DNA from: a virus
DNA: 64,000 bases
Direction: 5' to 3' (one strand)
Virus record (IMG/VR): IMGVR_UViG_3300025732_000017
How positions within the stretch are numbered: position 1 is the stretch's first letter; each line of letters opens with the position of its first letter. Made by a program: the position numbers and the translations under genes. This document shows, piece by piece, positions 32,073-61,207 of the stretch. The notes beneath the pieces were generated by a model. It was not told the origin of the DNA. It saw only the letters and a list, made by a program, of their open reading frames with translations, and searched no databases.

Positions 32073-32432
32073 ATGAAGACTTTTACTCGTATGGCTGCTC
32101 AGGGCGATTTCGTGATCTTCCGCATCAATGAGATGCCGAAGAATGTGGAGCGCATCGAGATCAAGAACAACCATCTCACGGTTGCTCACTCTGAGACTGG
32201 ACATAATCATGTCGCTGTCCTGAAGCGTCCAGAGTCCGTTGAAGCGTTCAAGGAGACTGGCACCAAGGATGTGGATCTGTACAAGATGTTCCTTCTTGTG
32301 AAGGATCCGACTCCGATTGAACATCTTCGGCCACACGACACACATGAAACTCTGCTTGTTGCTCCGGGCAAGTATGAGATCCGCAGGCAGCGTGAGTACA
32401 CCCCGGAGGGTTTCCGTCGCGCTCAGGACTAA
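32073..32432 (+). CDS. Conserved phage hypothetical protein
   Basis: AAQGD, VAHSETGHNH, HLRPHDTH, PGKYEIRRQREY; His-rich. Confidence 0.7.
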   Translation: MKTFTRMAAQGDFVIFRINEMPKNVERIEIKNNHLTVAHSETGHNHVAVLKRPESVEAFKETGTKDVDLYKMFLLVKDPTPIEHLRPHDTHETLLVAPGKYEIRRQREYTPEGFRRAQD

Positions 32433-32446
32433 GCTGAGACAAACAG

Positions 32447-32478
32447 AAAAGACGGCGCCACAAACGCCGTCTTTTTTT
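32447..32478 (+). terminator. Rho-independent terminator
   Basis: AAAAGACGGCG-ccacaaa-CGCCGTC followed by T run. Confidence 0.85.
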
Positions 32479-32851
32479 ATTGGTGGTATTCATGAAGCCA
32501 ATGAATGATATTATAGCGGCGCCGCGCAGCTGCGAGTGGATGTATCGGCGTGCATATCGTGCCATTTTATGGGACTTGTTTCTGGTGGACTATGTAAAGA
32601 CCAGAATAATGTTAGATGTGGAACATGAGGATCTAAACCATGAAGTATAGAGTTTATACCAACGTTATTCATTCCATGTATGCTCGTCTGGATGATCAAA
32701 TTGTTTCGGGATGCAGGCCTGGATTATTTGACGAGGCTGGATTGACCGTTGATATGGTAACGGTAATTGAAAAGGTACGCAGACCAGTTCTGGCCCAGAT
32801 ATATTCGCAAATTGAACGCCCTGACATTTCCAATCAATCGGAAGATCAGTC

Positions 32852-33013
32852 ATGAACGAGTCATTTGATGAAGTCTGGCAACAAGCCCGAAATCAAGTCT
32901 GGAATCGTGTCATGAAACGAGTCAATGATGAGGTCTGGGGCAAAGTCTTCTGGGATGAAGTCTCGGATCAAGTCGAGGATCAAGTCTTGGATCAAGTTGA
33001 GGATCAGACATGA
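32852..33013 (+). CDS. QV tetrapeptide-repeat microprotein (cluster A)
   Basis: MNESFDEVWQQARNQVWNRV...SDQVEDQVLDQVEDQT; ATGA overlap with 32640..32855. Confidence 0.6.
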   Translation: MNESFDEVWQQARNQVWNRVMKRVNDEVWGKVFWDEVSDQVEDQVLDQVEDQT

Positions 33014-33082
33014 AATTCACCCTTGACATTCCCAATCTATAATTGTATCATTACCTCATAGTCATCAAAGGAGATAATCGTA

Positions 33083-33955
33083 ATGGCTAAGACGAAGAAG
33101 AAGCTGGATAAGCTGACGCAGGCTCAGATTGATGCGATGCCCAAGTATGTTGAGAAGTGGGTCGCGATCGGTCTTTCCACTGAGCGTGTGGATTTTGAGA
33201 AGGTCAAGCCGCTTGTGGCCAAGTGCTACGAGAAGGCTGGATACAAGGTTCCAAACTTCCACTTTGCACAGGGTCCTGACGAGGGCTATGAGACGTATCT
33301 GGCTCTCGGTGGCAAGCCTGGGCGTTCCGAGTATACCTCGGGCTGCATGTTTGGTTCGATGGAAGCATCTTGGCTTTCCTACTACGACTACTACAAGAAC
33401 GAGACGGACATCGAGATTGACAACATTGACCACATGAAGGAGCTGGTCATGTCGTCTGGTTGGGTCTATCTCGGCGACACCGATGCGATTATCCATGATC
33501 GCCCGACGATCATTGCCCGCGACGAGCAGGGTCGTCTGCACTCGGAGACTGGTCCCGCTATTCAGTATGGTGATGGCTGGGAGCGTTTCTACTGGCACGG
33601 TAACTGCATTCCGCGCGAGTGGATCATGGAGCGTGAGAAGCTGACTGCGGAGATCGCCATCGGTCAGCAGAACGTCGAGCTGCGTCGTTGCGCGTGTGAG
33701 ATCCTTGGTTGGGCAAAGATCCTTGATAGTCTCAAGGCAACTGTGCTTGACGAGGACGAGGATCCGATGATCGGGACTCTGCTTGAGGTTGAGATTCCTG
33801 AGATTGGCAAGGAGAAGTTTCTGAAGGTTCTGTGTGGCACTGGTCGCACGTTTGCAATTCCGGTTCCTCCGGATGTGAATACTGCGCTTGAGGCCAATTC
33901 GTGGACGTATGGAATGGATCCGAAGATGCTGCGGGATCTTGAAGTTCGCACCTGA
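33083..33955 (+). CDS. DUF6745-like protein
   Basis: LTQAQ...YVEKW..IGLST, ASWLSYYDY, GWVY, HDRP...DEQGRLHSETGPAIQYGDGW..WHG, NVELRR, LKVLCGTGR.F..PVPP. Confidence 0.7.
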   Translation: MAKTKKKLDKLTQAQIDAMPKYVEKWVAIGLSTERVDFEKVKPLVAKCYEKAGYKVPNFHFAQGPDEGYETYLALGGKPGRSEYTSGCMFGSMEASWLSYYDYYKNETDIEIDNIDHMKELVMSSGWVYLGDTDAIIHDRPTIIARDEQGRLHSETGPAIQYGDGWERFYWHGNCIPREWIMEREKLTAEIAIGQQNVELRRCACEILGWAKILDSLKATVLDEDEDPMIGTLLEVEIPEIGKEKFLKVLCGTGRTFAIPVPPDVNTALEANSWTYGMDPKMLRDLEVRT

Positions 33956-33998
33956 GAAAAGGAACGCGGTTTAGAGAAATCTGGGCCGCGTTTTACTT

Positions 33999-34584
33999 AT
34001 GAACATAGATGACAAGTTAGGAATCAAGTCAGAAATCCACAATGAATATCGATGATCAAGTCTGTGATCAAGTCTGTGATCAAGTCTGGAATCATGCTTG
34101 GCACGGTCAAGTCTGGGATCAAGTCGAGAATCAAGTCTGGATTCAAGTCTCGAATCAAGTCTGGAATCAAGTCAAGAGTCAAGTCTTGAATCAAGTCAGG
34201 AATCAAGTCAGGAATCCACAATGAACATTGATGACCAAGTAACAAATCATGTTAGCGATAGATGCCATATTGGATCCTCCGAAGAAATTTTCAAGCAAGT
34301 CTGCTGGGATTCATACTGTATGGTCTGGAGTAAAGTTAGAATTGAAGTCGGCAATCAAGTCCAAATTCTGGATTTAGTCTATCGTTGGATTCACAATGAA
34401 CATAGATGATACTGTAATAGGTTTGATTCGCAACGATCCAAACTTTACATTCCATAAAGAATGTGATAATACAAATCAGACCGTCCTATGGGAATTTGAT
34501 AGTCAGATATGGCGTAGAATATACATTGATGTTCTGCATGTAATAATGAATGATGCAGATTTTCCAGAATTCCGCGATACATGA
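33999..34584 (+). repeat. QV microprotein cluster B: tandem MNIDD-starting ORFs
   Basis: Frameshifted relic at 33999, then 34042..34224, 34221..34409, 34396..34584; 12-bp unit like GATCAAGTCTGG. Confidence 0.75.
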
Positions 34585-34970
34585 AAAAGAAAGATCTTGT
34601 CATAATTGCTTGTGGCGGTCGCGATTATACAGACTCAGACTTTGTTAGTGCCACACTTTCCAAACTATCACGATTGACCACTATCATCGTCGGCGGTGCG
34701 CGTGGTGCTGATACCCTTGCAGAATATTGGGCAAATCAACAGAATTGGAAAAATAAACGACAGATAACAATCCAGAGAATTGATGCTGATTGGAAGACGC
34801 ATGGCAAAAAGGCTGGTTATATTCGCAATTCAGAAATGCTAAAGGAATTATTGAAGCATCGTGATAAGGGGAAAGATGTAGGTGTTGTTGCGTTTCCGGG
34901 TGGAACTGGAACCGAAATGATGATCAAACTTGCCAAGAAATCCGATGTGGGTGTATGGCAACCAAAGTAG
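34581..34970 (+). CDS. SLOG-family protein (DUF2493/YspA-like)
   Basis: IIACGGRDY, IIVGGARGAD, ADWKTHGKKAG.IRN, AFPGGTGT. Confidence 0.85.
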   Translation: MKKKDLVIIACGGRDYTDSDFVSATLSKLSRLTTIIVGGARGADTLAEYWANQQNWKNKRQITIQRIDADWKTHGKKAGYIRNSEMLKELLKHRDKGKDVGVVAFPGGTGTEMMIKLAKKSDVGVWQPK

Positions 34971-35024
34971 ACCCTTGACAATAGATTGCTGATCATCTAT
35001 GATGGGTTCATGAAAGGAAATGGC

Positions 35025-35417
35025 ATGATTCCCAAGATTGGTCAAGAAGTGACTGTGCGTGTTCGCAATTCATTGGCAACGCATCGGCATCTGTATGCTG
35101 CTGGTGTTGTCACCGAGTTTGAGACATTCACTGGTAAGGTCTGTGCTCCTGAAAAGTGGCAAGATCCCAAGCGAACGCTGAATCTTACTACAGGCATTCG
35201 GTCTTTTCCCATTCGCTCCCTCTCTCTGGATAATGTTGTCTCCATTGATGGCAAGCGACATGAAGCCAAGAAAACTGACATGACCACAAAGACCTGGACT
35301 GTGCCTGGTTCCAAGGGCAATGTGTATACGATCACCGAGGTCAATGGTCAGCGTTCATGCACCTGTGTCGGATATTCGTTCCGTCGCACCTGTAAGCACG
35401 TTATTGGAGGAAAGTAA
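35025..35417 (+). CDS. SWIM zinc-finger protein
   Basis: VPGSKGNVYTI...CTCVGYSFRRTCKH. Confidence 0.8.
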   Translation: MIPKIGQEVTVRVRNSLATHRHLYAAGVVTEFETFTGKVCAPEKWQDPKRTLNLTTGIRSFPIRSLSLDNVVSIDGKRHEAKKTDMTTKTWTVPGSKGNVYTITEVNGQRSCTCVGYSFRRTCKHVIGGK

Positions 35418-36087
35418 TGTATCGCTACATTATCACGTTTGAGAAGGATGGTTATCAGCATCGTGAGTTGGCATTTGCCAGCACTGCTTTTGTTTTGGGT
35501 GAGATGCTGGCGAATGGACTATTGTCTGCGTGGAATGCGACTGTGGATGATATTCTATTTATTGAGGAGACTCCCGTATCTTGAACATATACGATCCTAC
35601 CTAGATTCCGTACATTGCATTGCAGGTATGAGTGACTGCGTTACCATGGAAGTCAGATTTCCTCCTTGACAATTCCAGAGACACCTGTCATAGTGTGTCC
35701 ATGATCAAGATGAAATCCAAGACGCGCCCTGCGCGCCGTCATCCGATCTTCGCGGATCTGATGACACCTAAATACCGAAAGCGAATTGTGCCTTCCAAGA
35801 AGGTCTATTCGCGCAAGCGCCAGAAGATGGAGAACTGATGAAGAACTATGATTCCAAATTTCTGTGTGTCGGTGTCGGTGGACGCTATTGCGTCTGCTGC
35901 TTTGACCCACCTGGATCCAAGGCACGCCGACTGGAATACCGTCGTGCCAAGCGCGCCGCCAAGCGCGAGGCCATGAAGGTCGAGGAAATGAACCTCGAGG
36001 ACTAAGTCCTTGATCCTACTGGGCAATTTTAGCCCTTGACAATTCCCTAAGGATGTGTCATAGTGTGTTCATAATCAAACTGACCAC

Positions 36088-36429
36088 ATGATGAAGGAGA
36101 CAAAGATGCAGGACTGGAAAATGCCCACCGAGATGCCCGCCCACGACATGGACATTGCGCTGACGATGTTCGCCGATCACCTGATCGGCATCGCGCCGTA
36201 CAGCAAGCCCAATGTCACCTTTGAGCGTGGATCCAAGTTCATGCGCGTGGTGAAGTCGGATGGTTCTTCGCGATCCGCCTATGCGTTCATCGTCATGTTT
36301 GACCATGATCGGTGGATGGTTGGTGACATTCTGAAGCCCGCGTCGTGGAAGGCGCCTGCCAAGAACTTCAGTCGCGGTAATGTGCTGAATCCGAAGTCCT
36401 ATCAGAACTTCAGCTACTACGGCCTGTGA
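36088..36429 (+). CDS. Early hypothetical protein, paralog of 49193..49537
   Basis: Shared VTFE.GSK..RVV...RSAYAFIV...VGDILK.ASWKAPAKNF.RGNV. Confidence 0.7.
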   Translation: MMKETKMQDWKMPTEMPAHDMDIALTMFADHLIGIAPYSKPNVTFERGSKFMRVVKSDGSSRSAYAFIVMFDHDRWMVGDILKPASWKAPAKNFSRGNVLNPKSYQNFSYYGL

Positions 36430-36928
36430 GGAGATAAATCATGTCCAACTTTGATCTGTCGCTGTTTGTCTGGAACAAGGACAGAAAGAGCCTGGTGATG
36501 AATAATTTCACCCATGCCTTTCCACAGGAGTTTATGGTGCGTTCGCATCACACTGGCAAGGAAGTGCGGTTTTGCCGTGTGGAGCACTTTGACGTTCTAT
36601 ATGACCAGGATCAATGGGATGGTGAGCAGATGGTGTATCGCCCGGTTGGCACAGTTGCCAATGTGGAATATGCTGCACTCTGTCGCGGATGAGGATCATG
36701 TCCATCTATTACCGAATTGAGGAAACTGTTGGCGCACACTACATCGTGTGGAATAATATGTTCACAACGATGGAAAGTGCTGTGGAGTATATTGATCAGC
36801 ACTCAGAAAATCTGAGGGATCGTCTTCACGTGGCTGCATATGATTCCAATGGTTGGTCGCCTGTTCGAATGGGAGTTGTTTACTAATGACCCTTGACAAA
36901 GGGTTGGGCACCTGTCATAGTGTAGAAG

Positions 36929-37276
36929 ATGAATCGCAAGGAGTTGGAAATGTCGCATACCGGTTTCACCGTTGAGGTTTACATCCGCGATGCCAGGATT
37001 CGTGGCAAGATGACTCGTGGACGCATTGACTGGCTTTCCAAGAACTTCCTTGGTTTTCGTTTCCTTGAGGCCATGGATTTTCAGGTTGCTTCCGAGAAGG
37101 AAGCTGAGCAGCTGGCCAAGCAGGCGCACAAGCATCGTGGGCTTGACAAGCTGCACTTCAAGGTGCATCAGATCTATGTGACGCGCCAGAATGCGATGAC
37201 GGGCAAAGATTACCAGGAGAGGTATGACACGCCGACCTGGTGCTCGCCTTCGTCGGAGTCATACTGGTCCATGTGA
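36929..37276 (+). CDS. Early hypothetical protein
   Basis: Promoter TTGACA 36893; C-terminal TP.WCSPSSESYWSM. Confidence 0.6.
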   Translation: MNRKELEMSHTGFTVEVYIRDARIRGKMTRGRIDWLSKNFLGFRFLEAMDFQVASEKEAEQLAKQAHKHRGLDKLHFKVHQIYVTRQNAMTGKDYQERYDTPTWCSPSSESYWSM

Positions 37277-37475
37277 GGAATCCAATGTCTAATATGTCAT
37301 ACTGTCGTTTCCAGAACACAGAGAAGGATCTGCGAGATTGTCTGAATGCAATGCGTAAAGCATCCAGCATTTTTGACATGGATCTATCGAATGATGAATA
37401 TGAGGCATTCCAGGAAATGACCTCGCTTATTTTACACTTTAGCATTGAAGCTGATAGGCTTCAGAAGGATGATGT

Positions 37476-37844
37476 ATGATGGCCAATCCAATCTTGGATA
37501 AGATATCCAAGCTGAATGCGGAGATTGAACAGCTTCGCGCAGAGAATAGTCATCTGCGCCGTGTGGGCATGGATAGGCCTTCTGCCGAACTACATGAGGC
37601 GGCGATGGCGGAACTGCGCGCCGAAAACGAGCGCCTCCGCTCTGAGGTGGAGGAACAGGCGCGCCTGCTGGGCATGGGCAGCGAGCGCGAAGCGAGGTTG
37701 CGCGCTCGCGTCGAGGTGCTGAGCGCAGCAATTGTTCTTATGGCGTCGCTGGCACCGAAAATGACAATCGACACCAGCGACCCACAAGGCGTGGCGCGGG
37801 ATTTCGTGGAAATTGCGCGCGCCACTCTGGAGGCCAAGCCATGA
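37476..37844 (+). CDS. Coiled-coil hypothetical protein
   Basis: Heptad-rich LRAENERLR. Confidence 0.55.
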   Translation: MMANPILDKISKLNAEIEQLRAENSHLRRVGMDRPSAELHEAAMAELRAENERLRSEVEEQARLLGMGSEREARLRARVEVLSAAIVLMASLAPKMTIDTSDPQGVARDFVEIARATLEAKP

Positions 37845-38187
37845 CCAAGCAATATGAATCCAGTTCCAGTTATGCACAACTGAATGCCGATATTACCGCA
37901 GTAAAGAAAGACAAAATCATCGCAGATCTTATAGCTGAAAACACCGATCTTCGTACCCGCGGTACGATATTAGAAGAGGCAGTTCGGTTTTACGCGGACG
38001 TTCACACATGGAAGTCTGCATCGGTCTTCATGTGTGGCCATGACGGAAACTCTAGGGCTACGATTGATCGCGGAGAAAAGGCTCGCGGAGCCCTAAGATC
38101 CTTGGGAAAGCCTTCGGCAAAATAAGCCCTTGACATTGCCCAAGACCTAGTCTATACTGTGTTCATAGATCAACAAGGAGAACCCAA

Positions 38188-38634
38188 ATGGCGTTCATGA
38201 ACCAGACGATCAAGTCCGAGCTGCTTCCCGGTATCAAGGCCGTGCTCCGCAAGTATGGCCTCAAGGGTACCGTCTCCGTTGGAAACCACACCGCGCTTTC
38301 CGTCACGATCCGCGAAGGCAAGCTGGATTTCATCGGTGACGCCATCTCCGTGCTGCGCTCGCCACAGAATGCCAATATCCCCTTCCTGTCGGATTCTATC
38401 GCATCCCTCCTGAAGGAACAGTCGCTGGATGTCAATACGTACCACATCCGTTCCAACCACTCCGGCATCTGCCAAAAGGCTCTGCTGGAGCTGCACCAGG
38501 CCATGAACGATGGTAATTGGGACAAGTCCGACCCACAGACCGACTATTTCAACGTGGGCTGGTATACCTACATCAATATCGGAAAGTGGCGCAAGCCCTA
38601 CCGCTGCACCGCTCAGATGCCAAAGGTGGCATAA
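38188..38634 (+). CDS. Early hypothetical protein, paralog of 42560..43021
   Basis: Shared PGIKAVLRKYGLKG...VGNHT.LS...DVNTYH...SDPQTDYFNVGWY..NIG.W.KPY. Confidence 0.7.
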   Translation: MAFMNQTIKSELLPGIKAVLRKYGLKGTVSVGNHTALSVTIREGKLDFIGDAISVLRSPQNANIPFLSDSIASLLKEQSLDVNTYHIRSNHSGICQKALLELHQAMNDGNWDKSDPQTDYFNVGWYTYINIGKWRKPYRCTAQMPKVA

Positions 38635-38846
38635 ACGATGACTGAAACGTTCGGCGCCTTTCTAATGATCGTGACCTATCTTATCGGATTGGTCACGGGT
38701 TATATCATATGGGCGCCTATGTCCAATTTCAAAAGAGGATTCGTGGACGGAATCACCCTCAGATTTATTTGGAAACGATGAAAATCCGTCCTTGACATTG
38801 CCCAAGATCTAGTCTATACTGGATTCATACTTAGGGAGATCCTATC

Positions 38847-39341
38847 GTGTTCCAGGTTTTCGTCGGCTCCAAAAGCCAAGCCCGCAACCTCGTCCGCATC
38901 CATAATGCGACGCATTGGATCTCCCTGCTCGACCACGACGATACCCATCCACAGATGGATCGTCAGGATCATGTGCTCCGCCTCCTGCTGAATTGCGACG
39001 ATCAGCTAAAGGTCACGGATCCACACGCACCAACCCGCAACCAAGTCCAGCAGATCCTGGATTTCACCCGCAACCTCACCGATGCAACCATCGTCGTGAA
39101 CTGCTTTGCTGGTGTGGCCAGATCTACCGCGGCTGCGCTGGCCATTCTCGTCCAGCACCATGGATCCATAGATCACGCTATAAACCTGCTCCGCGCAGAT
39201 CGCCCCCAGGCCATGCCAAATCCAGTCATCAGCCAGTTCGCTGACGATATTCTAGGCCTCGATGGAAAGCTTTTCGCAGCCTCCGAGAAGGTGGCACAGA
39301 GCCGTGTTCTGGAGATAATTGACGATATGGACAATTCGTGA
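38847..39341 (+). CDS. CX5R phosphatase-like protein, paralog of 12231..12710
   Basis: VNCFAGVARSTAAAL, AMPNP; same N-terminus MF.VFVGSK..A..LV..HNATHWISLLD. Confidence 0.85.
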   Translation: MFQVFVGSKSQARNLVRIHNATHWISLLDHDDTHPQMDRQDHVLRLLLNCDDQLKVTDPHAPTRNQVQQILDFTRNLTDATIVVNCFAGVARSTAAALAILVQHHGSIDHAINLLRADRPQAMPNPVISQFADDILGLDGKLFAASEKVAQSRVLEIIDDMDNS

Positions 39342-39351
39342 GAAACCCACA

Positions 39352-39668
39352 ATGAACATCGATGACCAAGTCTGGAATCAAGTCTGGAATCAAATCTATG
39401 ATCAACTCTTGAATCAAGTCAGGAATCAAGTCTATGATCAAGTCGAGGATCAAGTCAGGAATCAAGTCAGGAATCAAGTCTGGACTCAAGCCAGGAATCC
39501 ACAATGAACATCGATGACCAAGTCTACAATCAAGTCTGGGATCAAGTCTGGGATCAAGTCTGGAATCAAGTCTGGCTTCAAGTCTCGATTCGAGCCTGGG
39601 ACCAGGTTCGGAATCAATATCTTCAAGATGCCAATTCCAGGGCGCCAGAGAACACGGACTCCGCCTAA
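39352..39668 (+). repeat. QV microprotein cluster C (39352..39507, 39504..39668)
   Basis: MNIDDQVWNQVWNQ...RNPQ and MNIDDQVYNQVWDQVWDQV...; ATGA coupling. Confidence 0.75.
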
Positions 39669-40081
39669 GTCATTGATTCGACTCGGTAATTTCGAGGCTT
39701 GACAAGGCACAGTTTTTGCCCTACACTCAGTCCATAAAACCAAAACAAGGAAATGGCAATGTTTATCTATGAAGTCACTAGATCCACGTGGGGTAGTTCT
39801 GGTAACGACGATCAGCCATTTGGCCTCTATGAATCCAAGGATATAGCTGATAAGCTGGCTAAGTCTCTTATGGAGGTTGATTTTCCTGTTACGGTTACCA
39901 TTACACAGCATGAAGTCTTTAGTGAGCCTAAGGTAAACGGAGAATGGAGCGGCAGAAAGAAGTGGCGATATGAAAACGAACACTGGATTCGCTGGGATAA
40001 ATTCTATGGTCACCGAGAATAATCCATTGATTCGACTGGGTAATTCTTGCCCTTGACAAAAGGCCCGATCTAGGTTATTCT

Positions 40082-40480
40082 GTGACTCTGAGAAAGGAGA
40101 TGGTCATGAATCTGAAGGTTCGGCAGCTGGAAACCGCATTGCTCTTTGACAGGCCGACGCCTGTTCCTGAGGGCTTTCGTCTGATCGGCCGAGATGGCTT
40201 TTATTGTCGCGGTGAAGAGGTCTGGTGGGAATACAAGGGCAAGGGCTATCTCTATGGCCAAAGCCTGAATTGCCGCGAGGATTTTGAGTACAGGCTGCGA
40301 GTGAATGATGAGGCCATCCTCATCCCACGCGAGGTGGCGGCCATGAAGACTATTCTGAAGACGACGCGGGATGCCAATGTTCGCAAGGCATTGTCGGCGC
40401 GCCTTCGCCTTCATGAGGAGGCCTATGAACTGCGCCGTATCCGTCGTGGTGTTCGTCGTGTCATGGGACCCGTTGATTGA
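40082..40480 (+). CDS. Early hypothetical protein
   Basis: Follows promoter repeat at 40053. Confidence 0.55.
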   Translation: MTLRKEMVMNLKVRQLETALLFDRPTPVPEGFRLIGRDGFYCRGEEVWWEYKGKGYLYGQSLNCREDFEYRLRVNDEAILIPREVAAMKTILKTTRDANVRKALSARLRLHEEAYELRRIRRGVRRVMGPVD

Positions 40481-41259
40481 TGGCTAATTCCAGCCCTGAA
40501 GATGCCAATAATCCAGGAAAGATGCCAATTTCGTAACGTATGACGCAAAAGATGCCAATTCCAGGGCGTCAGAGAACACACAGAGACACAGGGAAACGAT
40601 ATATGCGCTATACAAAAGCTGACATTCCGCGGCGACCAGGTCGCAATTGGCACAAACGACGCATCATCGGCGGCATATGGATGGCAGAACAGCGATGGTA
40701 CCAAACGCCTGCGCTGCGCACCAGAGAGCGAATGGAGGACCTACAGCACCTCGCCGGACAGCCCAGGCGACGCCAGATGCCAAGGATCCTGCTATCGACG
40801 CTGCTCTGGCACGCCGCCGAGAACCGAAAAAGCCGCCTGAGGCGCCTAAGCCATTGATTCCATTAGGTAATTCCAGCCCTTGACAAGGCGCCTGATCTAG
40901 CATATTCTGTGACTCTGATTGCGGAGGTATCAATGTCTCAGACGTTCTACACGGTCCATGTTCCTGACGGCGACGACCCTGGTCTGGGTAATTGGAAGCT
41001 GAGCACGGCCAGCCTGGCTATCGCCTTTGCACAGGATCTCGGCGTCAGGTGTGAGGTCCGAGTCCATGATGGCGACAAGATTCCCATGCGTCTATGCACT
41101 GTTCTCCCTGGGACCTTCGATGGCCATCCTAATCTTATCTGGCCCTATCCGTGACGTGGACTTCTAACCCATTGATCTGATTGGGCAATTCCAGCCCTTG
41201 ACAAGGCGCCTGATCTAGCATATTCTGTGACTCTGATTGCGGAAGAGGAAAGGAAACCG

Positions 41260-43296: not shown

Positions 43297-44052
43297 ATGC
43301 GTAACTATGAAATGGTTCTTATGGCCCTGAAGTCGGGCGAGACCAAGACGGCTACGGACCTCAAGGCGGAGCTGCCGGGTCTGGAGTGGTGGAACATGCA
43401 CAAGTATGTGGCGCGTGCCAAGTACCTGGCAGGTGCTGAGATTGAGCTGATGAAGGCTGGCAAGCCGCTCAAGGCTGCCCGTGCGCGGGATGCTGAGACT
43501 CTGCGCCTGGTGAATGCCGACAAGTTCAAGGCCTGGTCGCCTGTCACCAAGACTGGTGGTCCGCTGTTCCGCAAGGCCAACCCGAAGGCCAAGACCCAGA
43601 AGGCCAAGGTGAAGGCTGCGAAGCCTCCGAAGCCTGCGAAGCCGACCAAGACCAAGATCCCTCCGGCGATCCAGGCGAAGCTGAATGCCCAGCATGCCAA
43701 GTCCAACTCGCTGATCGCCGCTGCGATGGCGAAGGATCCGTGGCTCGGTCGTCGTGGCCGTGTCACCCAGGAGGCTACCAATCTGGTCAATCCGGTGGCG
43801 CCGCCCGATCAGCCCGGTCATGGTGAGCTGAAGGGTGCCAATGTCGTGGATATGATCAAGGCTGAGCTGGCTGCGACTGCGCCGGCGAAGGGTACCAAGA
43901 AGGCTGCTGCTCTTCCGCGTGGTCCGAAGGCGACGCCTGCGCCTGCTCCGGTCAAGGTCGAGCGGGTGTCGGATGTGGTGACTCCGCTGTCGGATGATCC
44001 GCTGGACATTCCGGACTTCCTCCGTATCAAGTCCACCAAGACGGAGGAGTGA
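43297..44052 (+). CDS. Lys/Ala/Pro-rich protein, possibly nucleic-acid binding
   Basis: Histone-like K/A/P composition; C-terminal LDIPDFLR peptide. Confidence 0.6.
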   Translation: MRNYEMVLMALKSGETKTATDLKAELPGLEWWNMHKYVARAKYLAGAEIELMKAGKPLKAARARDAETLRLVNADKFKAWSPVTKTGGPLFRKANPKAKTQKAKVKAAKPPKPAKPTKTKIPPAIQAKLNAQHAKSNSLIAAAMAKDPWLGRRGRVTQEATNLVNPVAPPDQPGHGELKGANVVDMIKAELAATAPAKGTKKAAALPRGPKATPAPAPVKVERVSDVVTPLSDDPLDIPDFLRIKSTKTEE

Positions 44053-44607
44053 GGAGGCGCCCAGCACAACCCTGGGCTAGCGTGCTTCCGCGCGAATAAA
44101 GCAGGTGGTTCCTGCAGGAAGGCAAGTCTGCTCGGCGTAGGAGCGACGGTGGGATGGGCACCGCAGGTTAGCCGGACAAAGGGATCGGACTAACCACCCA
44201 TCACCTAAGCCCTTGATCTGATTGGGCAATTCCAGCCTTGACAAAGTACCAATTCTCGCCTATACTGGTACCAAGATCGGAAAGAGGAGAGCAGAGATGG
44301 TTCGCAAGTATACCAACATGGTTCTGGAGATGGTTGAAGAGGGCATCCTGGACAAGGATGTGGTCATCATGGCCTGCCTGAAGTACATGTCGGAGGCTGA
44401 GGTCCGTGACATGGCCGAGGCGAACGGGTTCGTCCCCGAGGATGAGGAGGAGGAGATTCGGTCCGACTATGAGGCCAATCGCACCTATGAGCGAGTGCGA
44501 GTGGTGGCTGGGCAGTAAGCCCTTGATCTGATTGGGCAATTCCAGGGCTTGACAGAGCGTCAATTCTCGCCTATACTGAGTTCATGATCAAGCAAAGGGA
44601 GACGGTG

Positions 44608-44853
44608 ATGCAGACGTTCCGTGTTGATATCGACCTCGACGGCGATAGCACTATTGGCGAGTTCCTGGAGACTCTCGCGGAGTATCGCGGCTCGGCGCAA
44701 ATTGTGTCCTATGACGCGGCTCCCGACGCTGGCGGTTGCCCGACGATGGTGCTGGAATTCACGTCCTATGAGGTTGCGCTGGAGTTCGCCATGGAATGGT
44801 TCGGCGAGTCGTTTGAGGATGCCAAGGAGTACGTGGAGACGATTACGGTGTAA
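44608..44853 (+). CDS. Acidic early protein, paralog of 48858..49109
   Basis: MQTFRV.IDLD...T(I/L)GEFL...YDA.PDAGG.P.M.LEFTSYE...EYVETITV. Confidence 0.7.
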   Translation: MQTFRVDIDLDGDSTIGEFLETLAEYRGSAQIVSYDAAPDAGGCPTMVLEFTSYEVALEFAMEWFGESFEDAKEYVETITV

Positions 44854-45200
44854 CCCCTTGACCTGACAAGGCTTTTCCAGGGCCTTGACAGCGCCCTGGT
44901 TTCGCCCTATACTGGTACCAAGATCGGAAAGGGAAACAGAGATGACCAAGACCAAGACCCCGACCAGGAAGCCCCGCAAGCCCACCATCCTCTCTTCCTG
45001 GGAATGGTCACAGTATCATCAGCAGATGATCGAGTACCTCGAGGAGAAGCTGGAGCGCAGGGAGCAGAAGATCGCGCAGCTGGAACGCCAGATCGAGCGC
45101 CTGCAGGGTAAGTAACCCATTGATCTGACACGGCTTTTCCAGGGCTTGACAGAAGCCTGATCCAGCCCTATACTGGTACCAAGATCGGAAAGGGAAACAG

Positions 45201-45941
45201 ATGCAGACGAACCTCCTCACTCGCGGCAACCCCAAGGTCCTGAAGGGCGAGAGCCAGGGCTACCTGACCTTCATCCTTCACCTGGCGCCGGCGTCGCTGT
45301 CGGGCTACAACACCTGCGCCGCGGCGACTGATGGCTGCAAGCTGGCGTGTCTGAACACCGCTGGTCGTGGTGGCATTCCCAATGCTCGCCCCGTGACCGT
45401 GCAGGCTCGCAATGGTGCCATGACGGTGTCCAACGTGATCCAGGCGGCTCGCATCCGCAAGACCGTGTGGTTCTTCCAGGACCGCGTCGGCTTCATGGCT
45501 CAGCTGGTCAAGGAAATCCGTGCGGGCATCCGCTATGCTCAGAAGATGGGCCTGATCCCCGTGTTCCGTCTGAATGGCACCTCCGATCTGCGCTGGGAGA
45601 GTGTCGGTGTGGATGGTGCGCGCAATGTCATGGAGCTGTTCCCGGACGTGCAGTTCTATGATTACACCAAGCTGTCCAATCGCAGGGACCTGCCTGCCAA
45701 CTACAAGCTGACCTTCTCCCTGGCGGAGAATAACGACCTCCAGGCGTGGGCTGCTGCTTCGGCTGGTCTGAACGTCGCTGCGGTGTTCCGTGGCAAGCTG
45801 CCCGCGACCTTCATGGGTCGCACGGTGATCAATGGTGATGACTCGGATCTGCGTTTCCTTGATCCGGTGGGTGTGGTGGTTGGTCTGAAGGCGAAGGGCA
45901 AGGCGAAGCGGGACACGACGGGCTTTGTGAGGGCTGCCTAA
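45201..45941 (+). CDS. GP88-like phage protein
   Basis: C..A..GC..ACL...GRG, VFRLNGTSD, VQFYDYTK, YKLTFS, GD.SDLRFLD, GLKAKG. Confidence 0.75.
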   Translation: MQTNLLTRGNPKVLKGESQGYLTFILHLAPASLSGYNTCAAATDGCKLACLNTAGRGGIPNARPVTVQARNGAMTVSNVIQAARIRKTVWFFQDRVGFMAQLVKEIRAGIRYAQKMGLIPVFRLNGTSDLRWESVGVDGARNVMELFPDVQFYDYTKLSNRRDLPANYKLTFSLAENNDLQAWAAASAGLNVAAVFRGKLPATFMGRTVINGDDSDLRFLDPVGVVVGLKAKGKAKRDTTGFVRAA

Positions 45942-46029
45942 GCCATTGATCTGATTGGGCAATTCCAGCCTTGACAGAGCACCAGTTTCGCCCTATACTG
46001 GTACCAAGATCGGAAACAAGGAGACAGCG

Positions 46030-46263
46030 ATGGCCAAGTCCAAGACCAAGTCCAAGACCAAGTCCAAGACCAAGTCCAAGACCAAGGTCTATGTCGTGCT
46101 GAATGAGTCGAAATGGCCCACGACGGTTGTGGGTGTGTTCAGTACGCGCGGCCTCGCCATGGCAGGCGCCAAGAAGGAGCGCCAGAAATGGCCGAACATC
46201 GGGATTCTTCGGATTTCCCATCACATGGTTGATAATCCCGAATGGTACGTGGGAAAGCCTTGA
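46030..46263 (+). CDS. Early protein with KSKT x4 N-terminal repeat
   Basis: 12-bp tandem CCAAGTCCAAGA. Confidence 0.6.
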   Translation: MAKSKTKSKTKSKTKSKTKVYVVLNESKWPTTVVGVFSTRGLAMAGAKKERQKWPNIGILRISHHMVDNPEWYVGKP

Positions 46264-48077
46264 TCTGACACAGCTTTTCCAGGGCCTTGACAGAGCACCA
46301 GTTTCGCCCTATACTGGTACCATGATCGGAAACAAGGAGACAGCGATGACCAAGATCCGCTTCACGGCCCCCTCCCCTCGCGCCGACCGCATCCACGGCC
46401 TGACCAAGATGGGTCGCGCCATCGTGGACTACTTCGCGGCTCGCCCGGGTCAGGTGATCTCCCGCACCACGGTGGAGCTGCACCTCGCCTCGCGTGGCTT
46501 CAAGCGCCCCGCGGTCACCGCGACGGTCTGCTCGGATCTGGCCCACTCGGGTCATCTGAAGCCGATGCCGTTCGGCATGTACCAGTTCCGCGCTGCGGCC
46601 TAAGGAAAGGATTGATCATGCATACCATCACGTTCCTCGCTCAGTCGCTGGCTCTGGCTGGTGTTCTGTTCGCCGCTGGCGTCGGCCTGGTCGCGCTGAT
46701 CGGGTTCTTCGCTGATCGCAACCGCTAAGGAGCAAGACCATGTTTAGGATCACCGAAGGCAGGGGTTTTCAGATGACGTTCGCAAACGGATGGACGGTCT
46801 CTGTCCAATGGGGTGCTGGCAATTACTGTCCGAACCACCACGTCCTTCCGTCTGGTAAGTCGGAGAGGGCTTATGAAGATATGCAGCGTAAGCTGGGCGA
46901 GGAGGGCGTGCTTGTCGCGGAGGCAGGCTGGTGGAAGGGCTCCGGTGACGTGGAGGTTAGTGGTTTCATGACGCCCGACCAGGTTCTGGCCCTCATGGTC
47001 GAGCTGGCAGCTAGGGAGTAAGACCGTGGTCTGCATTTCCGTGGACACGCTGGCTCTGTTCGCATTTGGTATCAGTCTGGTCGTGCTGGCTCGACTGATC
47101 ACCCGCAACCGCTAAGGAGATGCACATGGATTGCCTTCAGCCGCTAGTTTTCTTTCTGACCTACGCTGCGGTGCTCGGCATCGCCGTGTGGGTTGTAATC
47201 GCCATCCGTAATGAGGAGTAAGATCATGACAATGGATTCCAGGGAGCTGGCGAAGGCGCTGGCTGAGAAGGCGAAGGCTGCTTCCATTCCCTATTCGGAG
47301 TATGAGGCGAAGGTGGACTATCCGTTCGCCCTGGGCTATCTGACAGGCACCGTGCAGGATCTTCTGCTCCGCCTGTCGCCAGGCCAGCGCGAGACTATTG
47401 CGAAGCAGTACGGTATCAGCTGAGGAGACAGAGATGACCGAGACCCTGGAGCTGGCGAAGGCGCTGGCTGAGAATGAAGAGCTGCGCGTGGCCAATAAAG
47501 AGTTGGTGTTGGGTATCACCACCATAACTCTCCGCCTTCTGGAAGATATTGATCGACAGCGCGCGGAGAATGAAGGGCTGCGCGCGGAGAATGAAGGGCT
47601 GCGCGCAGAGCTGCGCCAGGCGATCAAGGAGCTGGCAGATTGTGAACAGTTCAGCGACTACTAACTCGCCGGCTCCGACCGCTAACCCCTTGATCTGACA
47701 CGGTAATTCCAGCCTTGACATAGGCCTGATCCCACCCTATACTGAGTACATAAGGTGGAAACAAGGAGACGACAGATGACCCAGATCCCCGCAACCAAGG
47801 TCTATATCCTCTTCGTGGAAGAGACCGCGCATGGTGGTTGGGAGTGGGAGACCCATCTCCATGGTGTATATGCGACGCGGGAGAAGGCTCAGGAGGCCCG
47901 TAAGGCTCTCGCAGCCAAGAGGGCGTTCTCGATTCGCTGCGGTGAGTGGAAGTCGCGCATCCGCGCTGTGCCTCTGCATGCCTAACCCCTTGATCTGACA
48001 CGGCAATTCCAGCCTTGACATAGGCCTGATCCCGCCCTATACTGAATACATAAGTTGGAAACACAAGGAGACGACGA

Positions 48078-48404
48078 ATGGCGAAGCTGCTGATCCAGAC
48101 CCAGGTCTATGAGAACTACGGCGCCCATGATTGGAACGGCGAGGGCGAGTGCCCGCAGTACTGGAAGCCGAAGTTTGGTTCGGACTACGTCCTTCCCAAT
48201 TTCACCGCCTTCACCGACGCGGCCTCGGTGGTCGAGGCGCTGAAGCCTCAGGTGGAGGCCAACGACCACAGCTGGCGCGAGTGGATCATCCACTGGGAGG
48301 TGCTGGCCGATGACCAGCCGACGCCCTGGGAGGCCGACCAGCTCCGCTGGGATGGTCGAGTGACCTTCCCAGCCAAGGTCCTCACCCTCCCGGTGGCGGC
48401 CTGA
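48078..48404 (+). CDS. Early hypothetical phage protein
   Basis: IQTQVYENYGAHDW.G.GECPQYWKPK.G. Confidence 0.65.
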   Translation: MAKLLIQTQVYENYGAHDWNGEGECPQYWKPKFGSDYVLPNFTAFTDAASVVEALKPQVEANDHSWREWIIHWEVLADDQPTPWEADQLRWDGRVTFPAKVLTLPVAA

Positions 48405-48423
48405 ACGGAACAAGGAGACAGAG

Positions 48424-48767
48424 ATGACGCAGACCTTCGATTTCGGCTTCGGCCCTGTCCCGGCTCACAAGCACCCGAATGGCGGTGGCTGGGTCGCCGA
48501 CACCGCTTATGTCGCCGACACCGCTTATGTCGGGCCTGATGCTCGGGTCTTCGGCAATGCTGTGGTCGGCAGCAATGCTCGGATCTACGGCTATGCTCGG
48601 GTCTACGGCAATGCCTGGGTCTGCGACGATGCTCGGGTCGGCGACAAGGCTCTGGTCTCCGATATGCTATAGTCAACGGCAATGCTGTGGTCTCCGGCAA
48701 TGCTGTGGTCGGCGGCAGCGCTTGGGTCGGCGGCAATGCTTGGGTCACCGAGGGTACTCACACCTAA
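48424..48767 (+). pseudogene. Hexapeptide (A.V.GN) repeat gene interrupted by a 1-nt frameshift
   Basis: ARVYGN repeats stop at 48672 but continue in another frame to TAA 48767; GATATGCT where GATAATGCT is expected. Confidence 0.6.
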
Positions 48768-48857
48768 CCCATTGATCTGACACGGCAATTCCAGCCTTGA
48801 CCTGGCGCCAGATCCGCCCTATACTGAGTACATAAGTTCGAAACAAGGAGAGCAGAG

Positions 48858-49109
48858 ATGCAGACGTTCCGTGTTGTGATAGACCTTGACAGCGAGTGGA
48901 CTCTTGGCGAGTTCCTCAACCTGCTCTCTGAGCATGGCTCGCCGCGGATTGTGTGCTATGACGCGACTCCCGACGCTGGCGGCAGCCCGATGATGATCCT
49001 TGAATTCACGTCCTATGAGGATGCGCTGGGGTTCGCCCAGCTTTGGTTCGCCGAGGACGAGGCGCCATCGCGGATGTCGGCGGAGTACGTGGAGACGATT
49101 ACGGTGTAA
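48858..49109 (+). CDS. Acidic early protein, paralog of 44608..44853
   Basis: See paralog. Confidence 0.7.
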   Translation: MQTFRVVIDLDSEWTLGEFLNLLSEHGSPRIVCYDATPDAGGSPMMILEFTSYEDALGFAQLWFAEDEAPSRMSAEYVETITV

Positions 49110-49192
49110 CCCCTTGATCTGACACGGCTTTTCCAGCCTTGACAGAGGCCTGATCGGGACCCTATACTGAGTACATGATCAAGGAGACAGAG

Positions 49193-49537
49193 ATGACCCA
49201 GACCTTCACTGCCCCGCACGACCTCGACCTCGCGCTGACGGCCTACGCCGATGCGCTGGAGCAGAAGCGCACCGCGGCGGCCAACATGGCCAGCTACCAC
49301 GTGTCGGTCACCTTTGAGCCCGGGTCCAAGTACCTGCGCGTGGTGATGGCTGATGGGTACAGGACCACGGGCACGCACCGGTCCGCCTACGCCTTCATCG
49401 TGGCGAAGGACATGGGCCAGTTCAAGGTGGGTGACATCCTGAAGGCGGCCTCCTGGAAGGCTCCGGCCAAGAACTTCGCCCGGGGCAATGTGTTCCGCCC
49501 GGAGACCTACGCGAAGCACAGCCCGTACGGGCTTTGA
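49193..49537 (+). CDS. Early hypothetical protein, paralog of 36088..36429
   Basis: See paralog. Confidence 0.7.
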   Translation: MTQTFTAPHDLDLALTAYADALEQKRTAAANMASYHVSVTFEPGSKYLRVVMADGYRTTGTHRSAYAFIVAKDMGQFKVGDILKAASWKAPAKNFARGNVFRPETYAKHSPYGL

Positions 49538-49946
49538 TCCGAACCAAGGAGTCTATCATGAACCAGCCGACCAAAGCCTTCCTCATCCAGCTCCGCGACC
49601 TCTGCCGCGCCCATGGCGTGGATTTCTCTGCTGACCTGAATGGCGTGTCCTTCACCAGCGCCGATGAAAGCCCGATCTACTGGGTCCACGCCGACGTGGA
49701 GAGCCTCGAGGACCTCGAGGCCCAGCTGGCGCAGGACTGATCTAAGCCATTGATCTGACACGGCTTTTCCAGCCTTGACCTGGCGCCAGATCCGCCCTAT
49801 ACTGAGTACATGATCAAGGAAAGGAAGACAGAGATGAACCGGATCGTGATCGCCTGCCACCTGTTCAATACGGCCGTGGCTTTTACCTACCTCGCGACGT
49901 GGCTGTTCAAGTAAGCAACCACCCCATCCCAACCAAGGAGATCCCT

Positions 49947-50660
49947 ATGACCGTGACGTATCACGACCACTCCACCACCCCCTTCACCTACCGCACCGAC
50001 GCCTTCAAGGGCGCGACCCTGGCTGTCTGGTCCGAGTGCATCCGCATCATGTCGGATGTGTGGGCGCACGAACAGCGCGCCCTGGTGTGGGATGAGGAAG
50101 CCGGCAAGTTCGGCACCCTCTCGCTGGACAATTCCGAATTCTCCAGCAAGACCCAGCCCCAGCACGCCACCGTGGACGCGCCGGCCGAGCTGATCGCCCG
50201 CTACCGCGATTCCGTCATCGCCCGCAACCACACCCGCCTCCTCGAGGCCTTCAAGGCCAAGAAGGAAGAGGAGCGCATGGCCGTCCGCACCGGCGCCGTC
50301 GTCCTGGTCAAGCGTGGCCGCAAGGACATCGGCAAGGTGGGGAAGGTGGTCTTTATCAAGGACATGCCCTACTCCACCGGCTGGCGCTCCCACCTGGCGC
50401 CCAAGGCCTGCATCGCCCTCGATGGTCAGAAGACCACCGTCCAGGGCCGCTATGGCAAGACCTTCGACCGCTACACCAACACCATCTGGGTGTGGGTGAA
50501 GAACCTGGACCTGGCGAAGGTGCCGGCGCCCTATGAGGTCACCGACGAGGATCTGGCGCGCATCCGCCAGCAGGCTGAAGCCGAGGCTGACATGCAGCTG
50601 ATCCGCTGGGGCATGAAGGAGGTGTCGTGGCGCAAGCCGGCGAGCTGGCAGGCAGCGTGA
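49947..50660 (+). CDS. Hypothetical protein with SH3/KOW-like central segment
   Basis: GAVVLVKRGRKDIGKVGKVVFI; AAGGAG RBS. Confidence 0.6.
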   Translation: MTVTYHDHSTTPFTYRTDAFKGATLAVWSECIRIMSDVWAHEQRALVWDEEAGKFGTLSLDNSEFSSKTQPQHATVDAPAELIARYRDSVIARNHTRLLEAFKAKKEEERMAVRTGAVVLVKRGRKDIGKVGKVVFIKDMPYSTGWRSHLAPKACIALDGQKTTVQGRYGKTFDRYTNTIWVWVKNLDLAKVPAPYEVTDEDLARIRQQAEAEADMQLIRWGMKEVSWRKPASWQAA

Positions 50661-51031
50661 GGTGGCGCCCCGGTGGTGTAAAGCACAGAGCGAAGCGTGA
50701 ACACCACCGGGGCTGTACAGACCTTTACATAAGGCGAAAACTATATGGGGTTTGGGAAGACACTCTTTTAGCGACCACACCGGTTCAGAGCGCGTCCCAT
50801 TTTTTCGCTGTGGGGGTCTGCATATCTCTGCACGATTCTGCACCCCCCGTCAGTTTCTGTGTTTTTTCCTCTAAGTTCTCCCCGTATTTCTCTGTGCGCC
50901 CTTATTGTTCTACATACCCCCCGTCAAATCTCTGTGGAATTCCGCTAAGTTCTACCCCGTACTTTGTTCTTGACTATGTGTTTTTGGAATGATACACTAC
51001 CTAGTGTAGGGTATGAACAATAGGTATTATC

Positions 51032-52460
51032 GTGGAAAACATTCATTCTGATATTCTGAGTCCTCTTCATAGTATTCTACATGCTCATATATGGATGAAT
51101 GTAGGGTTCAGAGGGTTCAAATTTGATAGCAACATGGATGTTTTGAATGGTGTTTCATCAATGATTCATCCTGTTAGCTGGAGCTGTGTTCAAGAGATAT
51201 GGAAGCAGGATGTGAACTCATGAATTCTGTCAAAGATCAAGTTTGGGATCGAGTTTGGGATCAAGCCAGAATTCAAGTCTGTGATCAAGCCGGGAATCCA
51301 GTCTGGATTGTCTGGATTCAAGTCTGGAATCAAGTCAGGTATAAGTCATGAATTCTGTCAAAGATCAAGTTTGGAATCAAGTTTGGGATCGAGTTTGGAA
51401 TCAAGTTTGGGATCAAGTTTGGGATCAAGTCGGGATTCAAGTCTGTGATCAAGCCGGGAATCAAGTCTGGCTTCAAGTCTGGGATCAAGTCGGGAATCGA
51501 GCCCGGATTCAAATCAGGAATCAATCATGAATTCTGTCAAGAGTATGATTTGGGTTCAAACTCCACATCCAGTCATCTGGCATCAGCATCAAGCCTGGCT
51601 CCAAGTCTGGAATCAAGTCTGTGATCAATTCGGGAATCAAGTCTTCCTTCAAGTCGAGGATCATCAAGCCTGGAATCAAGTCTTGTATCAAATCAGGATT
51701 CAATCATGAAGTCTGTCAAGTCTAAATTCTGGTATCAAGTTAGGGATCAAGTCGGGAATCAAGTCTCCAATCAAGTCTTGTCTCAAGTCTGGGGTCAAGT
51801 CTGGAATCAAGACGGAGATACGTTGTGAAGTCTGTCAAAGATCAAGTTCATGACCAAGTCTGGCGTCAAGTCAGGAATCAAGTCTGGGATCAAGTCAGGA
51901 TTCAAGACGGACATCAAGTCTGGCATCAAGTCTTTGATCAAATCGAGAATCAAGTCATGAATCAAATCTGGGCTCAAGTCTGGTATCAATCATGAAACAT
52001 GTTGATCGAGAAGTCTGGTTTCAAGTCTGGCTTCAAGTCAGGAATCAAGTCGAGGATCAAGTCTTGGATCAAGTCGAGAATCAAATCTGGAATCAAGTTC
52101 GGGATCAAGTCGGAGATACGTTATGAATTCTGTCAAGAGTATGATTTGGGTTCAAACTCCAACTCTAGTCATCTGGCGTCAAGTGTCGCATCCCTTCTGG
52201 GATAGAATCAGGAGTGAAATCTATATGCCTGTTTGGAGGGAGCCGAATAATGTTTTGATTGCTCTGAAGCAGGATGTGAACTCATGAATTCTGTCAACGA
52301 TCCGGTCTGGAATCGAGCATCTAGTTCAGCTCCACCCGTCAGCCATCAAGTCACGCCTCGTGTCTCTGGTCCGGTCTGGAATGAAGTGTATATTCCTGTT
52401 TTGGAAACACTCAACATTGTTTTGACTGCTCTGAAGCAGGATATTACAAGTGGTTCATGA
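51032..52460 (+). repeat. QV microprotein cluster D: about 9 tandem coupled ORFs
   Basis: 51032..51223 (diverged), 51220..51351, 51348..51530, 51527..51709, 51706..51828, 51825..51995, 51992..52126, 52123..(frameshift)..52287, 52284..52460; ATGA/GTGA overlaps; M(N/K)SVK starts. Confidence 0.8.
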
Positions 52461-61107: not shown

Positions 61108-61207
61108 GTGATTAGTCCCATTTCTCCCGTGTATAGAACAGTATTCAACACCAAAAGAGGATCTCGCGAAAATGCAGGATCCTCTTTGTCATTTCAGAGA
61201 GGCGTAC

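Follow-up and report, generated by a model that had tools for sequence, protein, structure and literature searches.

Between positions 32,073 and 52,460 of a 64,000-nucleotide stretch of viral DNA (IMG/VR record IMGVR_UViG_3300025732_000017; the window, below, is this whole stretch), a gene for a DUF6745 protein is accompanied by 16 very small genes in which a tetrapeptide of the form x-(D/N)-Q-V is repeated in tandem. This raises the question of why a phage should encode so many related tracts as separate small proteins, and of how these are connected with the DUF6745 protein. The best-supported reading is that the DUF6745 protein is split, with its tract supplied in trans by a fast-turning library of mini-genes, and we give this a probability of about 0.6. 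It is favoured by the identity of the DUF6745 gene, the site at which homologues carry an insert, the co-occurrence of mini-genes with repeat-less copies, their absence from loci with fused copies, and predicted docking. The region would then be an accessory module of a large uncultured phage, with a core pair formed by the repeat-less DUF6745 protein and a His-rich beta protein, and each small gene would encode a stand-alone (x-D/N-Q-V)n tract of the kind inserted elsewhere between the N-terminal helices and the C-terminal domain of DUF6745. We found no paper describing a DUF6745 tract detached in this way as a gene library.

Sixteen small genes around a DUF6745 core

Tandem Repeats Finder locates 12 bp arrays at 32871-33006, 34055-34216, 39367-39617 and 51235-52111, with the consensus GATCAAGTCTGG or rotations of it. 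The arrays correspond to 16 small open reading frames (ORFs) of 40-71 aa on the plus strand, as are nearly all genes of the window, and these fall into four clusters (A to D), with one vestigial unit in addition; number and grouping agree with an earlier note on this DNA, which had listed about 16 tandem xNQV/xDQV mini-ORFs in four clusters. The building unit of the ORFs is 12 bp long and encodes x-(D/N)-Q-V. In the window there are 43 occurrences of the spaced hexamer CAAGTC-N6-CAAGTC as against 0 in 100 shuffles, and 40 of the 43 occurrences lie inside the four clusters, the other three being in a KSKT-encoding tract at 46 kb.

The mini-genes are chained by four-base stop/start overlaps, as had been proposed; there are 12 of these (11 ATGA and one GTGA), one of which joins a SLOG/YspA gene at 34581. 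Because these overlaps link the mini-genes, we infer that they are probably translated as coupled chains. Fixed N-termini, also claimed earlier, are present in clusters B and C (MNIDD) and in most of cluster D (M(N/K)SV(K/N)), but not in either member of cluster A or in the first member of cluster D, which begin otherwise, and one further member of cluster D starts with MKHVD. The C-termini RNPQ, QS, GDTL and KQDVNS recur just as the earlier note described. Clusters B and C have a common junction cassette in which ...RNPQ is followed by MNIDDQV, and the junctions in cluster D differ, a pattern that fits duplication of whole units plus dispersal.

Nine or ten of the 16 members are clearly periodic, and the highest identity between any two members is not above 79%. 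Drifted members that keep the common ends had been anticipated and are found: four (34221, 51527, 52123 and 52284) are partly degenerate, yet match tracts elsewhere, and three (32640, 34396 and 51032) are non-periodic and at E<=1e-3 match nothing in the loci that were fetched, so that their membership, which depends only on location and on a motif at one terminus, is doubtful. Across 77 in-frame tetrads selected on Q[VI], so that positions three and four are fixed by construction, the third residue is Q in all 77 and the fourth is V in 71 and I in six; the second is N in 29 and D in 27, and the first is W in 30 and R in 11, followed by E, L, G and others, which bears out the near-constant QV and variable first position noted before. 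At the nucleotide level, the two variable residues differ in the first two bases of their codons, and the third base is nearly fixed.

The window's only DUF6745 copy is a repeat-less core protein of 290 aa encoded on the plus strand at 33083-33955. The suspicion that this gene is DUF6745-like holds up in a profile check, with a match to PF20530 at E 3e-29 over profile positions 9-199 of 206, which scores 102.2 bits where the gathering threshold is 27. The N-terminal helical region of the family (L-T-x-x-Q ... W-x-x-x-G-L-S-T) is present, and L11, W26, G30 and Y49 are invariant when the protein is aligned with 77 homologues. Where the family commonly, if not universally, has an internal tract, the alignment leaves only a non-repetitive linker of 20 residues (66-85). 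The repeat-less form of about 285 aa is represented by more than 100 database clusters at 47-90% identity, and DUF6745 proteins are abundant, with more than 1000 matches within one length band. The AlphaFold2 model of the core has a predicted local distance difference test score (pLDDT) of 92.4; it has no Foldseek match in the PDB at E<=1e-3, and the best VIA-align wide hit reaches Z 4.4 over 54 residues.

The second gene of the core pair (32073-32432, plus strand) encodes a His-rich protein of 119 aa (phrog_27831, PHROG E 6.8e-10) that is modelled by AlphaFold2 as all-beta with pLDDT 82. By tblastn, a homologue of this partner adjoins DUF6745 in 79 of 86 loci, in either order and with fused forms included, so fused DUF6745 systems have the His-rich neighbour as the window does. 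Aligned partners have invariant H39, E41, H46, H84 and H91 and a conserved RQREY...EG.R tail, and the His/Glu set appears to resemble a metal site. Compared with the PDB, the partner model has no Foldseek match and a best Z of 3.0, and Atlas fold look-ups with core and partner returned only viral hypothetical clusters without function. In the Atlas, the partner fold also aligns inside a 366-aa PF20530 cluster (template modelling score 0.67 over 97 residues), which may be a fusion of partner and core and is offered as a lead. Our literature search found no publication mentioning DUF6745, and no published function for any member.

The mini-proteins and the internal tract of DUF6745

The earlier note stated that many DUF6745 proteins carry such a repeat internally, and alignment confirms this for several homologues. 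MW202476 UOF77368 aligns to window residues 6-65 and 86-290, with about 150 extra residues between, mostly (x-S-S-L)n. In prophiGD102-1 gp38 (PF20530, E 6e-29) the corresponding site is occupied by an (x-D/G-Q-L)n tract, which is matched by a window mini-protein in tblastn at E 2e-8. Two metagenomic DUF6745 proteins, P0125 and P0139, have x-D/N-Q-V itself as internal repeat, in the frame used by the mini-genes. Tracts of homologues at the linker site of the window copy are thus of xDQV, xDQL, xSSL or xDSV type, and bacterial DUF6745 relatives, mostly from Alphaproteobacteria, have x-D-Q-L, x-S-Q-L, x-A-Q-V, A-A-T-x or S-V-x-A tracts. In the window, by contrast with these internal tracts, each of the 16 mini-proteins has an ORF to itself, complete with start and stop codon, outside any DUF6745 frame.

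Profile searches lead to the same family. A profile (A4) built from 37 mini-proteins of this and related phages gave 3667 matches at E<=1e-3 among 1.84 billion representatives of 50%-identity clusters, and 97 of the best 105 of these 3667 matches carry PF20530. When one mini-protein was compared with longer proteins, 35 of the 55 matches had PF20530 on record. Other architectures make up a minority of the matches. As far as sequence tells, the mini-proteins are the DUF6745 tract. A word-indexed search for free relatives of the mini-proteins returned one match among 11 candidates; since such an index copes badly with queries of low complexity, we relied instead on scanning the fetched loci in six frames.

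Distribution, predicted docking and competing explanations

We scanned loci around DUF6745 genes for plus-strand ORFs with at least four in-register xxQ[V/I/L] tetrads. The repeat-less set comprised 83 loci (80 viral contigs and three loci of close relatives), and 59 of the 83 contain a total of 275 mini-ORFs. These concentrate within about 1 kb of the repeat-less DUF6745 gene: their density is 2.1 per kb in the 0-500 bp downstream and 0.85 per kb over an equal distance upstream. At 3-5 kb downstream it has dropped to 0.03 per kb, and every bin more than 3 kb away lies in the range 0.03-0.14 per kb. A few further loci have x-x-Q-L or x-D-R-V in place of xxQV. Among 77 loci with a fused DUF6745, nine apparent free periodic ORF cases were scored, of which eight are wrong-frame artefacts of GC-rich DNA and the ninth (L074) is actually a repeat-less locus with flanking arrays. 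The proposed co-occurrence of repeat-less DUF6745 with free QV ORFs is therefore seen in 59 of 80 loci, with no valid case in the 77 fused ones. The raw contrast (59/80 against 9/77) gives a Fisher p of 9e-16, a value that overstates the evidence because the fused and repeat-less states are clade-structured.

The 275 ORFs in 59 loci are all read in one frame, begin with a start of the M(K/N)SV(K/R) type, end in a tail specific to the lineage and are joined by stop/start overlaps, and the arrangement is retained across phages whose DUF6745 proteins are only 40-64% identical. In phages with a DUF6745 protein 86% and a partner 92% identical to those of the window, arrays occur at similar places, and their mini-proteins are 31-63% identical to their best window matches, with no one-to-one orthologues. 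The arrays would thus turn over fast, by unit duplication, tract slippage and decay. The SLOG, QueF-like and dual-specificity phosphatase genes of the window are not conserved beside DUF6745 and were rejected as parts of the module.

The proposal that the repeat is supplied in trans was examined with a complex model made in ESMFold2 from an alignment of DUF6745 proteins (A2) and the mini-protein alignment A4, whose first row is the cluster B product of 34042-34221. The model has an interaction prediction score from aligned errors (ipSAE) of 0.72 (0.72, 0.75 and 0.63 in separate runs) against 0.00 for the best of three controls, the partner chain has pLDDT >=72, and at least 25% of contacts are common to the runs. 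In the calibration of the tool, 58 of 80 solved complexes and two of 110 mismatched pairs attained this ipSAE mark, counts that hold only roughly here because custom alignments were used. The modelled interface on the core consists of helix 13-30, residues 48-54, the linker edges (65, 69, 81-90) and helix 92-107, and it surrounds the site where fused homologues have their tract. The mini-protein contacts of lowest predicted error are Q35, V36, Q39, V40, Q43, V44, Q47, V48, Q51 and Q55, and the non-contact residues (9, 26, 29, 30, 34, 42, 46, 50 and 54) all correspond to the first or second position of the tetrad; the invariant pair is therefore predicted to form a docking stripe from which the variable positions are displayed. 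The predicted docking supports binding of the mini-proteins to the DUF6745 core.

In the mechanism that we propose, the product of each mini-gene would rest against DUF6745 where helix 13-30, the edges of the linker (65-69, 81-90) and helix 92-107 together make up a surface. Binding would be through the invariant Q and V, with D/N pointing outward and the variable first residue (W/R/E/G/L...) at the rim. Docking of this kind with a variable rim implies that one core could be loaded with many alternative tracts, and it is plausible that the mini-proteins are interchangeable specificity subunits, as the earlier note suggested. What the analysis shows is the gene structure, the homology of the tract, the linkage, the complementary distribution and the model; translation, binding in the cell and exchangeability of the tracts are inferences.

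Several observations weigh against a split DUF6745 protein. There is no mini-ORF in the DNA scanned at 21 of the 80 repeat-less loci, and the contrast between split and fused forms is largely clade-structured: a quick maximum-likelihood tree of the DUF6745 C-terminal domain (129 distinct rows) implies at least six changes of state, just three independent pairs lie on supported branches, and a sign test is powerless with so few, free ORFs never occurring with the fused state in those three pairs. The sole DUF6745 gene of the window is 5.4 kb away from cluster C and 17 kb away from cluster D, and three members (32640, 34396 and 51032) lack any periodicity. Shine-Dalgarno-like motifs precede about half of the mini-gene starts in the window, and across loci they precede 20% of mini-gene starts compared with 7% of random positions; a general Shine-Dalgarno signal ahead of every mini-gene is therefore weak and was not relied on. 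Two further points, the occurrence of the tract outside DUF6745 and its codon usage, bear also on the alternatives that follow.

The tract is found in non-DUF6745 proteins, P0147 and P0154, which have a macro-like domain, and is therefore not exclusive to DUF6745. In these two proteins and in P0146, the N-terminal part is macro-like (PF01661, E 7.5e-4, below cut-off) or resembles DUF7666, and it is followed by an x-D/N-Q-V tract and then by a conserved C-terminal module of about 70 aa. That the tract functions in other protein contexts is what would be expected if the mini-proteins were derived from DUF6745 and now acted alone, as free binders, sponges or aggregating decoys, with adjacency a record of their birthplace. 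The distance of clusters C and D (5-17 kb) from DUF6745 and the W/Q/N-rich composition fit such independent action, as does the second array often seen 5-10 kb away in other loci (32 ORFs in the 5-10 kb bin). It accounts poorly for the density peak within 1 kb of repeat-less DUF6745 and for the lack of arrays beside fused forms, and the model buries the invariant Q and V against DUF6745, with controls at 0.00; we consider it unlikely, if the strongest of the competitors. The particular variant in the earlier note, a Q/N/W-rich and possibly amyloid-like decoy, is unsupported: we found nothing for it, there is no sign of aggregation-prone beta structure, and the model gives a folded partner (pLDDT >=72) packed on the core.

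Decay raises a different possibility, namely that the arrays are debris, or a selfish slippage expansion of the 12 bp unit, left after loss of the DUF6745 tract, with ORFs that are mostly untranslated or neutral. Seven of the 16 members are partly or fully degenerate, a vestigial frame-broken unit is present at 34000-34045, the 12 bp repeat is open in all frames on both strands, and a gene caller passed over one such array in a related locus (L002). Neutral debris should not, however, keep its frame, start type, tail and stop/start overlaps in 275 ORFs from 59 loci, or keep Q and V constant and vary chiefly in the first two codon bases of the other two residues, or persist as an arrangement where DUF6745 proteins are only 40-64% identical, and we regard this explanation as improbable.

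Codon usage points in yet another direction. In the tracts Gln is CAA in 87 of 95 cases and Val is GTC in 69 of 95, whereas neighbouring genes prefer CAG over CAA (93:31) and use GTC for 29% of Val codons, and the CAA/GTC pair also dominates the arrays of most related phages, which have 37-49% GC. Slippage accounts for codon homogeneity within one phage, not between phages, and the departure from genome usage, common to distant phages, hints at a nucleotide-level constraint beyond the protein model. A primary function at the level of nucleic acid (recombination cassettes, protein-binding repeats or structured RNA), with the frame secondary, would explain this bias and the almost invariant third codon positions, but it is the least probable of the explanations considered, as the DUF6745 gene of the window has no tract to receive cassette copies, high-GC relatives retain the Q-(V/L) peptide pattern with different codons, and the units have starts, stops and conserved peptide termini.

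Related systems, individual mini-genes and surroundings

The nearest known proteins are the fused DUF6745 forms, such as gp38 of the Mycobacterium phage prophiGD102-1 (QSM05137.1) and UOF77368.1 of Caudoviricetes sp. MW202476 (PF20530, phrog_31813), which have N-terminal helices and a C-terminal domain as in the window core; the latter is 42% identical to the window protein over 211 residues. Their tract has equal period and residue logic and lies inside the core ORF, and the window differs in having it outside the core ORF, in 16 small genes in four arrays. In the Microcystis phage Ma-LMM01, gp174, a named DUF6745 protein, is the top BFVD structural match to the window core (E 8.7e-16), and the adjoining gp175 is homologous to the His-rich partner (E 2e-11). 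In gp174 a non-repetitive insert stands where others have the tetrapeptide tract. Both genes belong to middle class B5 and rise with replication genes in RNA-seq (PMC5780444, supplementary file 4), which shows only that such a core pair is transcribed during infection.

A tetrapeptide tract of adjustable length is also known from the mycobacteriophage proteins Tweety gp54, Che8 gp57 and PMC gp51; it is central in the protein and consists of 15-48 tetrapeptides in which two positions are fixed and two vary (PMC2884959). Tweety gene 54 encodes 40-48 tetrapeptides with two fixed alanines, and codon positions one and two vary and position three is invariant (PMC2884959), a codon pattern that matches the window mini-genes. 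Mutants that escape the defence by Phrann gp29/gp30 have altered numbers of gp54 repeats, and changes in tract length alter counter-defence activity (PMC9262239). The tract of Tweety gp54 is internal and single, whereas the window has a library of free genes. Tweety gp54 was rejected as a DUF6745 member, having no Pfam family and an hhalign probability of 0.1% against the DUF6745 profile, and on sequence grounds it is an analogue, not a homologue, of the window system. Some proteobacterial DUF6745 tracts of A-A-T-x type come near to the A-A-x-S/Y of Tweety, with unrelated flanking domains; chromosomal DUF6745 relatives with A-A-T-x or x-x-A-T tracts were seen at four loci (L176, L178, L180 and L186; Alphaproteobacteria, Pseudothauera). 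In the Bordetella phage BMP-1, VR2 of bbp36 is a short in-frame repeat in a non-essential gene, whose copy number varies by isolate (as cited in PMC2884959); it is unlike the window arrays in its 24 bp unit and different protein, and detached copies of it are not known. No reverse transcriptase, the hallmark of diversity-generating retroelements, was present among the larger ORFs in a PHROG scan, in which no search aimed at such elements was made.

By analogy with the length-tunable tract of Tweety gp54, the field of action of the window system would most likely be phage-host conflict or host take-over; for the mini-proteins, a link to host defence is suggested by this analogy only. One tentative elaboration, which we think rather doubtful, is that DUF6745 and its metal-binding-looking partner form a chassis for exchangeable helical inserts, of which 10-16 versions of the complex would be made per infection to match variable host targets such as defence proteins. 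If so, each version would carry a distinct pattern of W/R/E/G, and the library would be a hard-wired multi-gene alternative to repeat slippage. More generally, a tract that could be detached and encoded as a gene library would give viruses a new route to diversify one complex without mutation, and it would illustrate clearly how a gene can split and one of its fragments then be amplified. Core, partner and inserts are small, separable and easily co-expressed, which offers an experimental handle.

The individual members, all on the plus strand, are as follows. Cluster A has a doubtful, non-periodic member of 71 aa (32640-32855), which overlaps the next ORF by ATGA, and a tract microprotein of 53 aa (32852-33013), identified by ORF scan and Tandem Repeats Finder, with the tail (x-D-Q-V)x4. 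Sequence reading places the vestigial 17th unit (34000-34045) just ahead of cluster B; it has an MNIDD start and a ...RNPQ-type junction and is almost tract-less and frame-broken. The first member of cluster B (34042-34224, 60 aa, MNIDDQV...RNPQ) is the partner in the complex model. The second (34221-34409, 62 aa) retains its start, has mostly lost periodicity and gives weak tract matches in seven loci, and the third (34396-34584, 62 aa) retains only the MNIDD start, is doubtful, and overlaps by ATGA into the gene at 34581. Cluster C consists of an MNIDDQV...RNPQ protein of 51 aa (39352-39507) and an MNIDDQV... protein of 54 aa (39504-39668) with a non-repeat tail and a TAA stop.

Cluster D opens with a doubtful, non-periodic member of 63 aa (51032-51223) that has a GTG start and only the KQDVNS end in common with the others. 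It is followed by a 43-aa protein beginning MNSVKDQV... (51220-51351) and by the member with the most regular tract (51348-51530, 60 aa), which served as query in the homologue search. The fourth member (51527-51709, 60 aa) has a degenerate N-terminal half and a periodic C-terminal half, with tract matches in 107 loci. The fifth (51706-51828, 40 aa) ends in GDTL and overlaps by GTGA with the sixth (51825-51995, 56 aa), which starts with GTG, and the seventh (51992-52126, 44 aa) again ends in GDTL. The eighth (52123-52287, 54 aa) is degenerate, with the N-terminus MNSVKSMIWVQTP as in member four and the end KQDVNS as in member one, and the ninth (52284-52460, 58 aa) is degenerate with weak residual similarity.

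The window resembles a plastic region of a large phage, and 12 kb of it gave no megablast match to GenBank phages. Genes are almost all on the plus strand, and G+C ranges from 28% (1-8 kb) through about 45% to as much as 56-60% (40-50 kb), a spread that points either to strong mosaicism of an accessory region or to an assembly that is chimeric. The SLOG/YspA-family gene at 34581-34970 (PF10686, E 9e-13; phrog_289), whose ATG at 34581 overlaps the stop of the last cluster B mini-gene, is present in only four other DUF6745 loci, and a dual-specificity phosphatase-like gene (38847-39341; PF00782, E 9e-9) lies directly upstream of cluster C. At 46034-46086 the unit CCAAGTCCAAGA is repeated 4.4 times and read as KSKT repeats in the ORF 45955-46263; this CAAGTC repeat was rejected as a relative of the arrays, the tract being unrelated and the hexamer common by chance. 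An 18/36 bp tandem repeat of 11.6 copies and 60% G+C at 48424-48775 encodes a hexapeptide-like x-A-R-V-x-G tract; the repeat continues to 48751, past the end of the ORF at 48672, and a frameshift may therefore be present. The window also has RNaseH-type exonucleases, a QueF-like gene and genes of auxiliary type (7818-9404, 566-1906, 59593-60804, 57151-58098 and 61172-61906), comprising a Nol-like carbamoyltransferase (E 1.5e-122), two radical-SAM proteins, a PstS-like phosphate-binding protein and PhoH.

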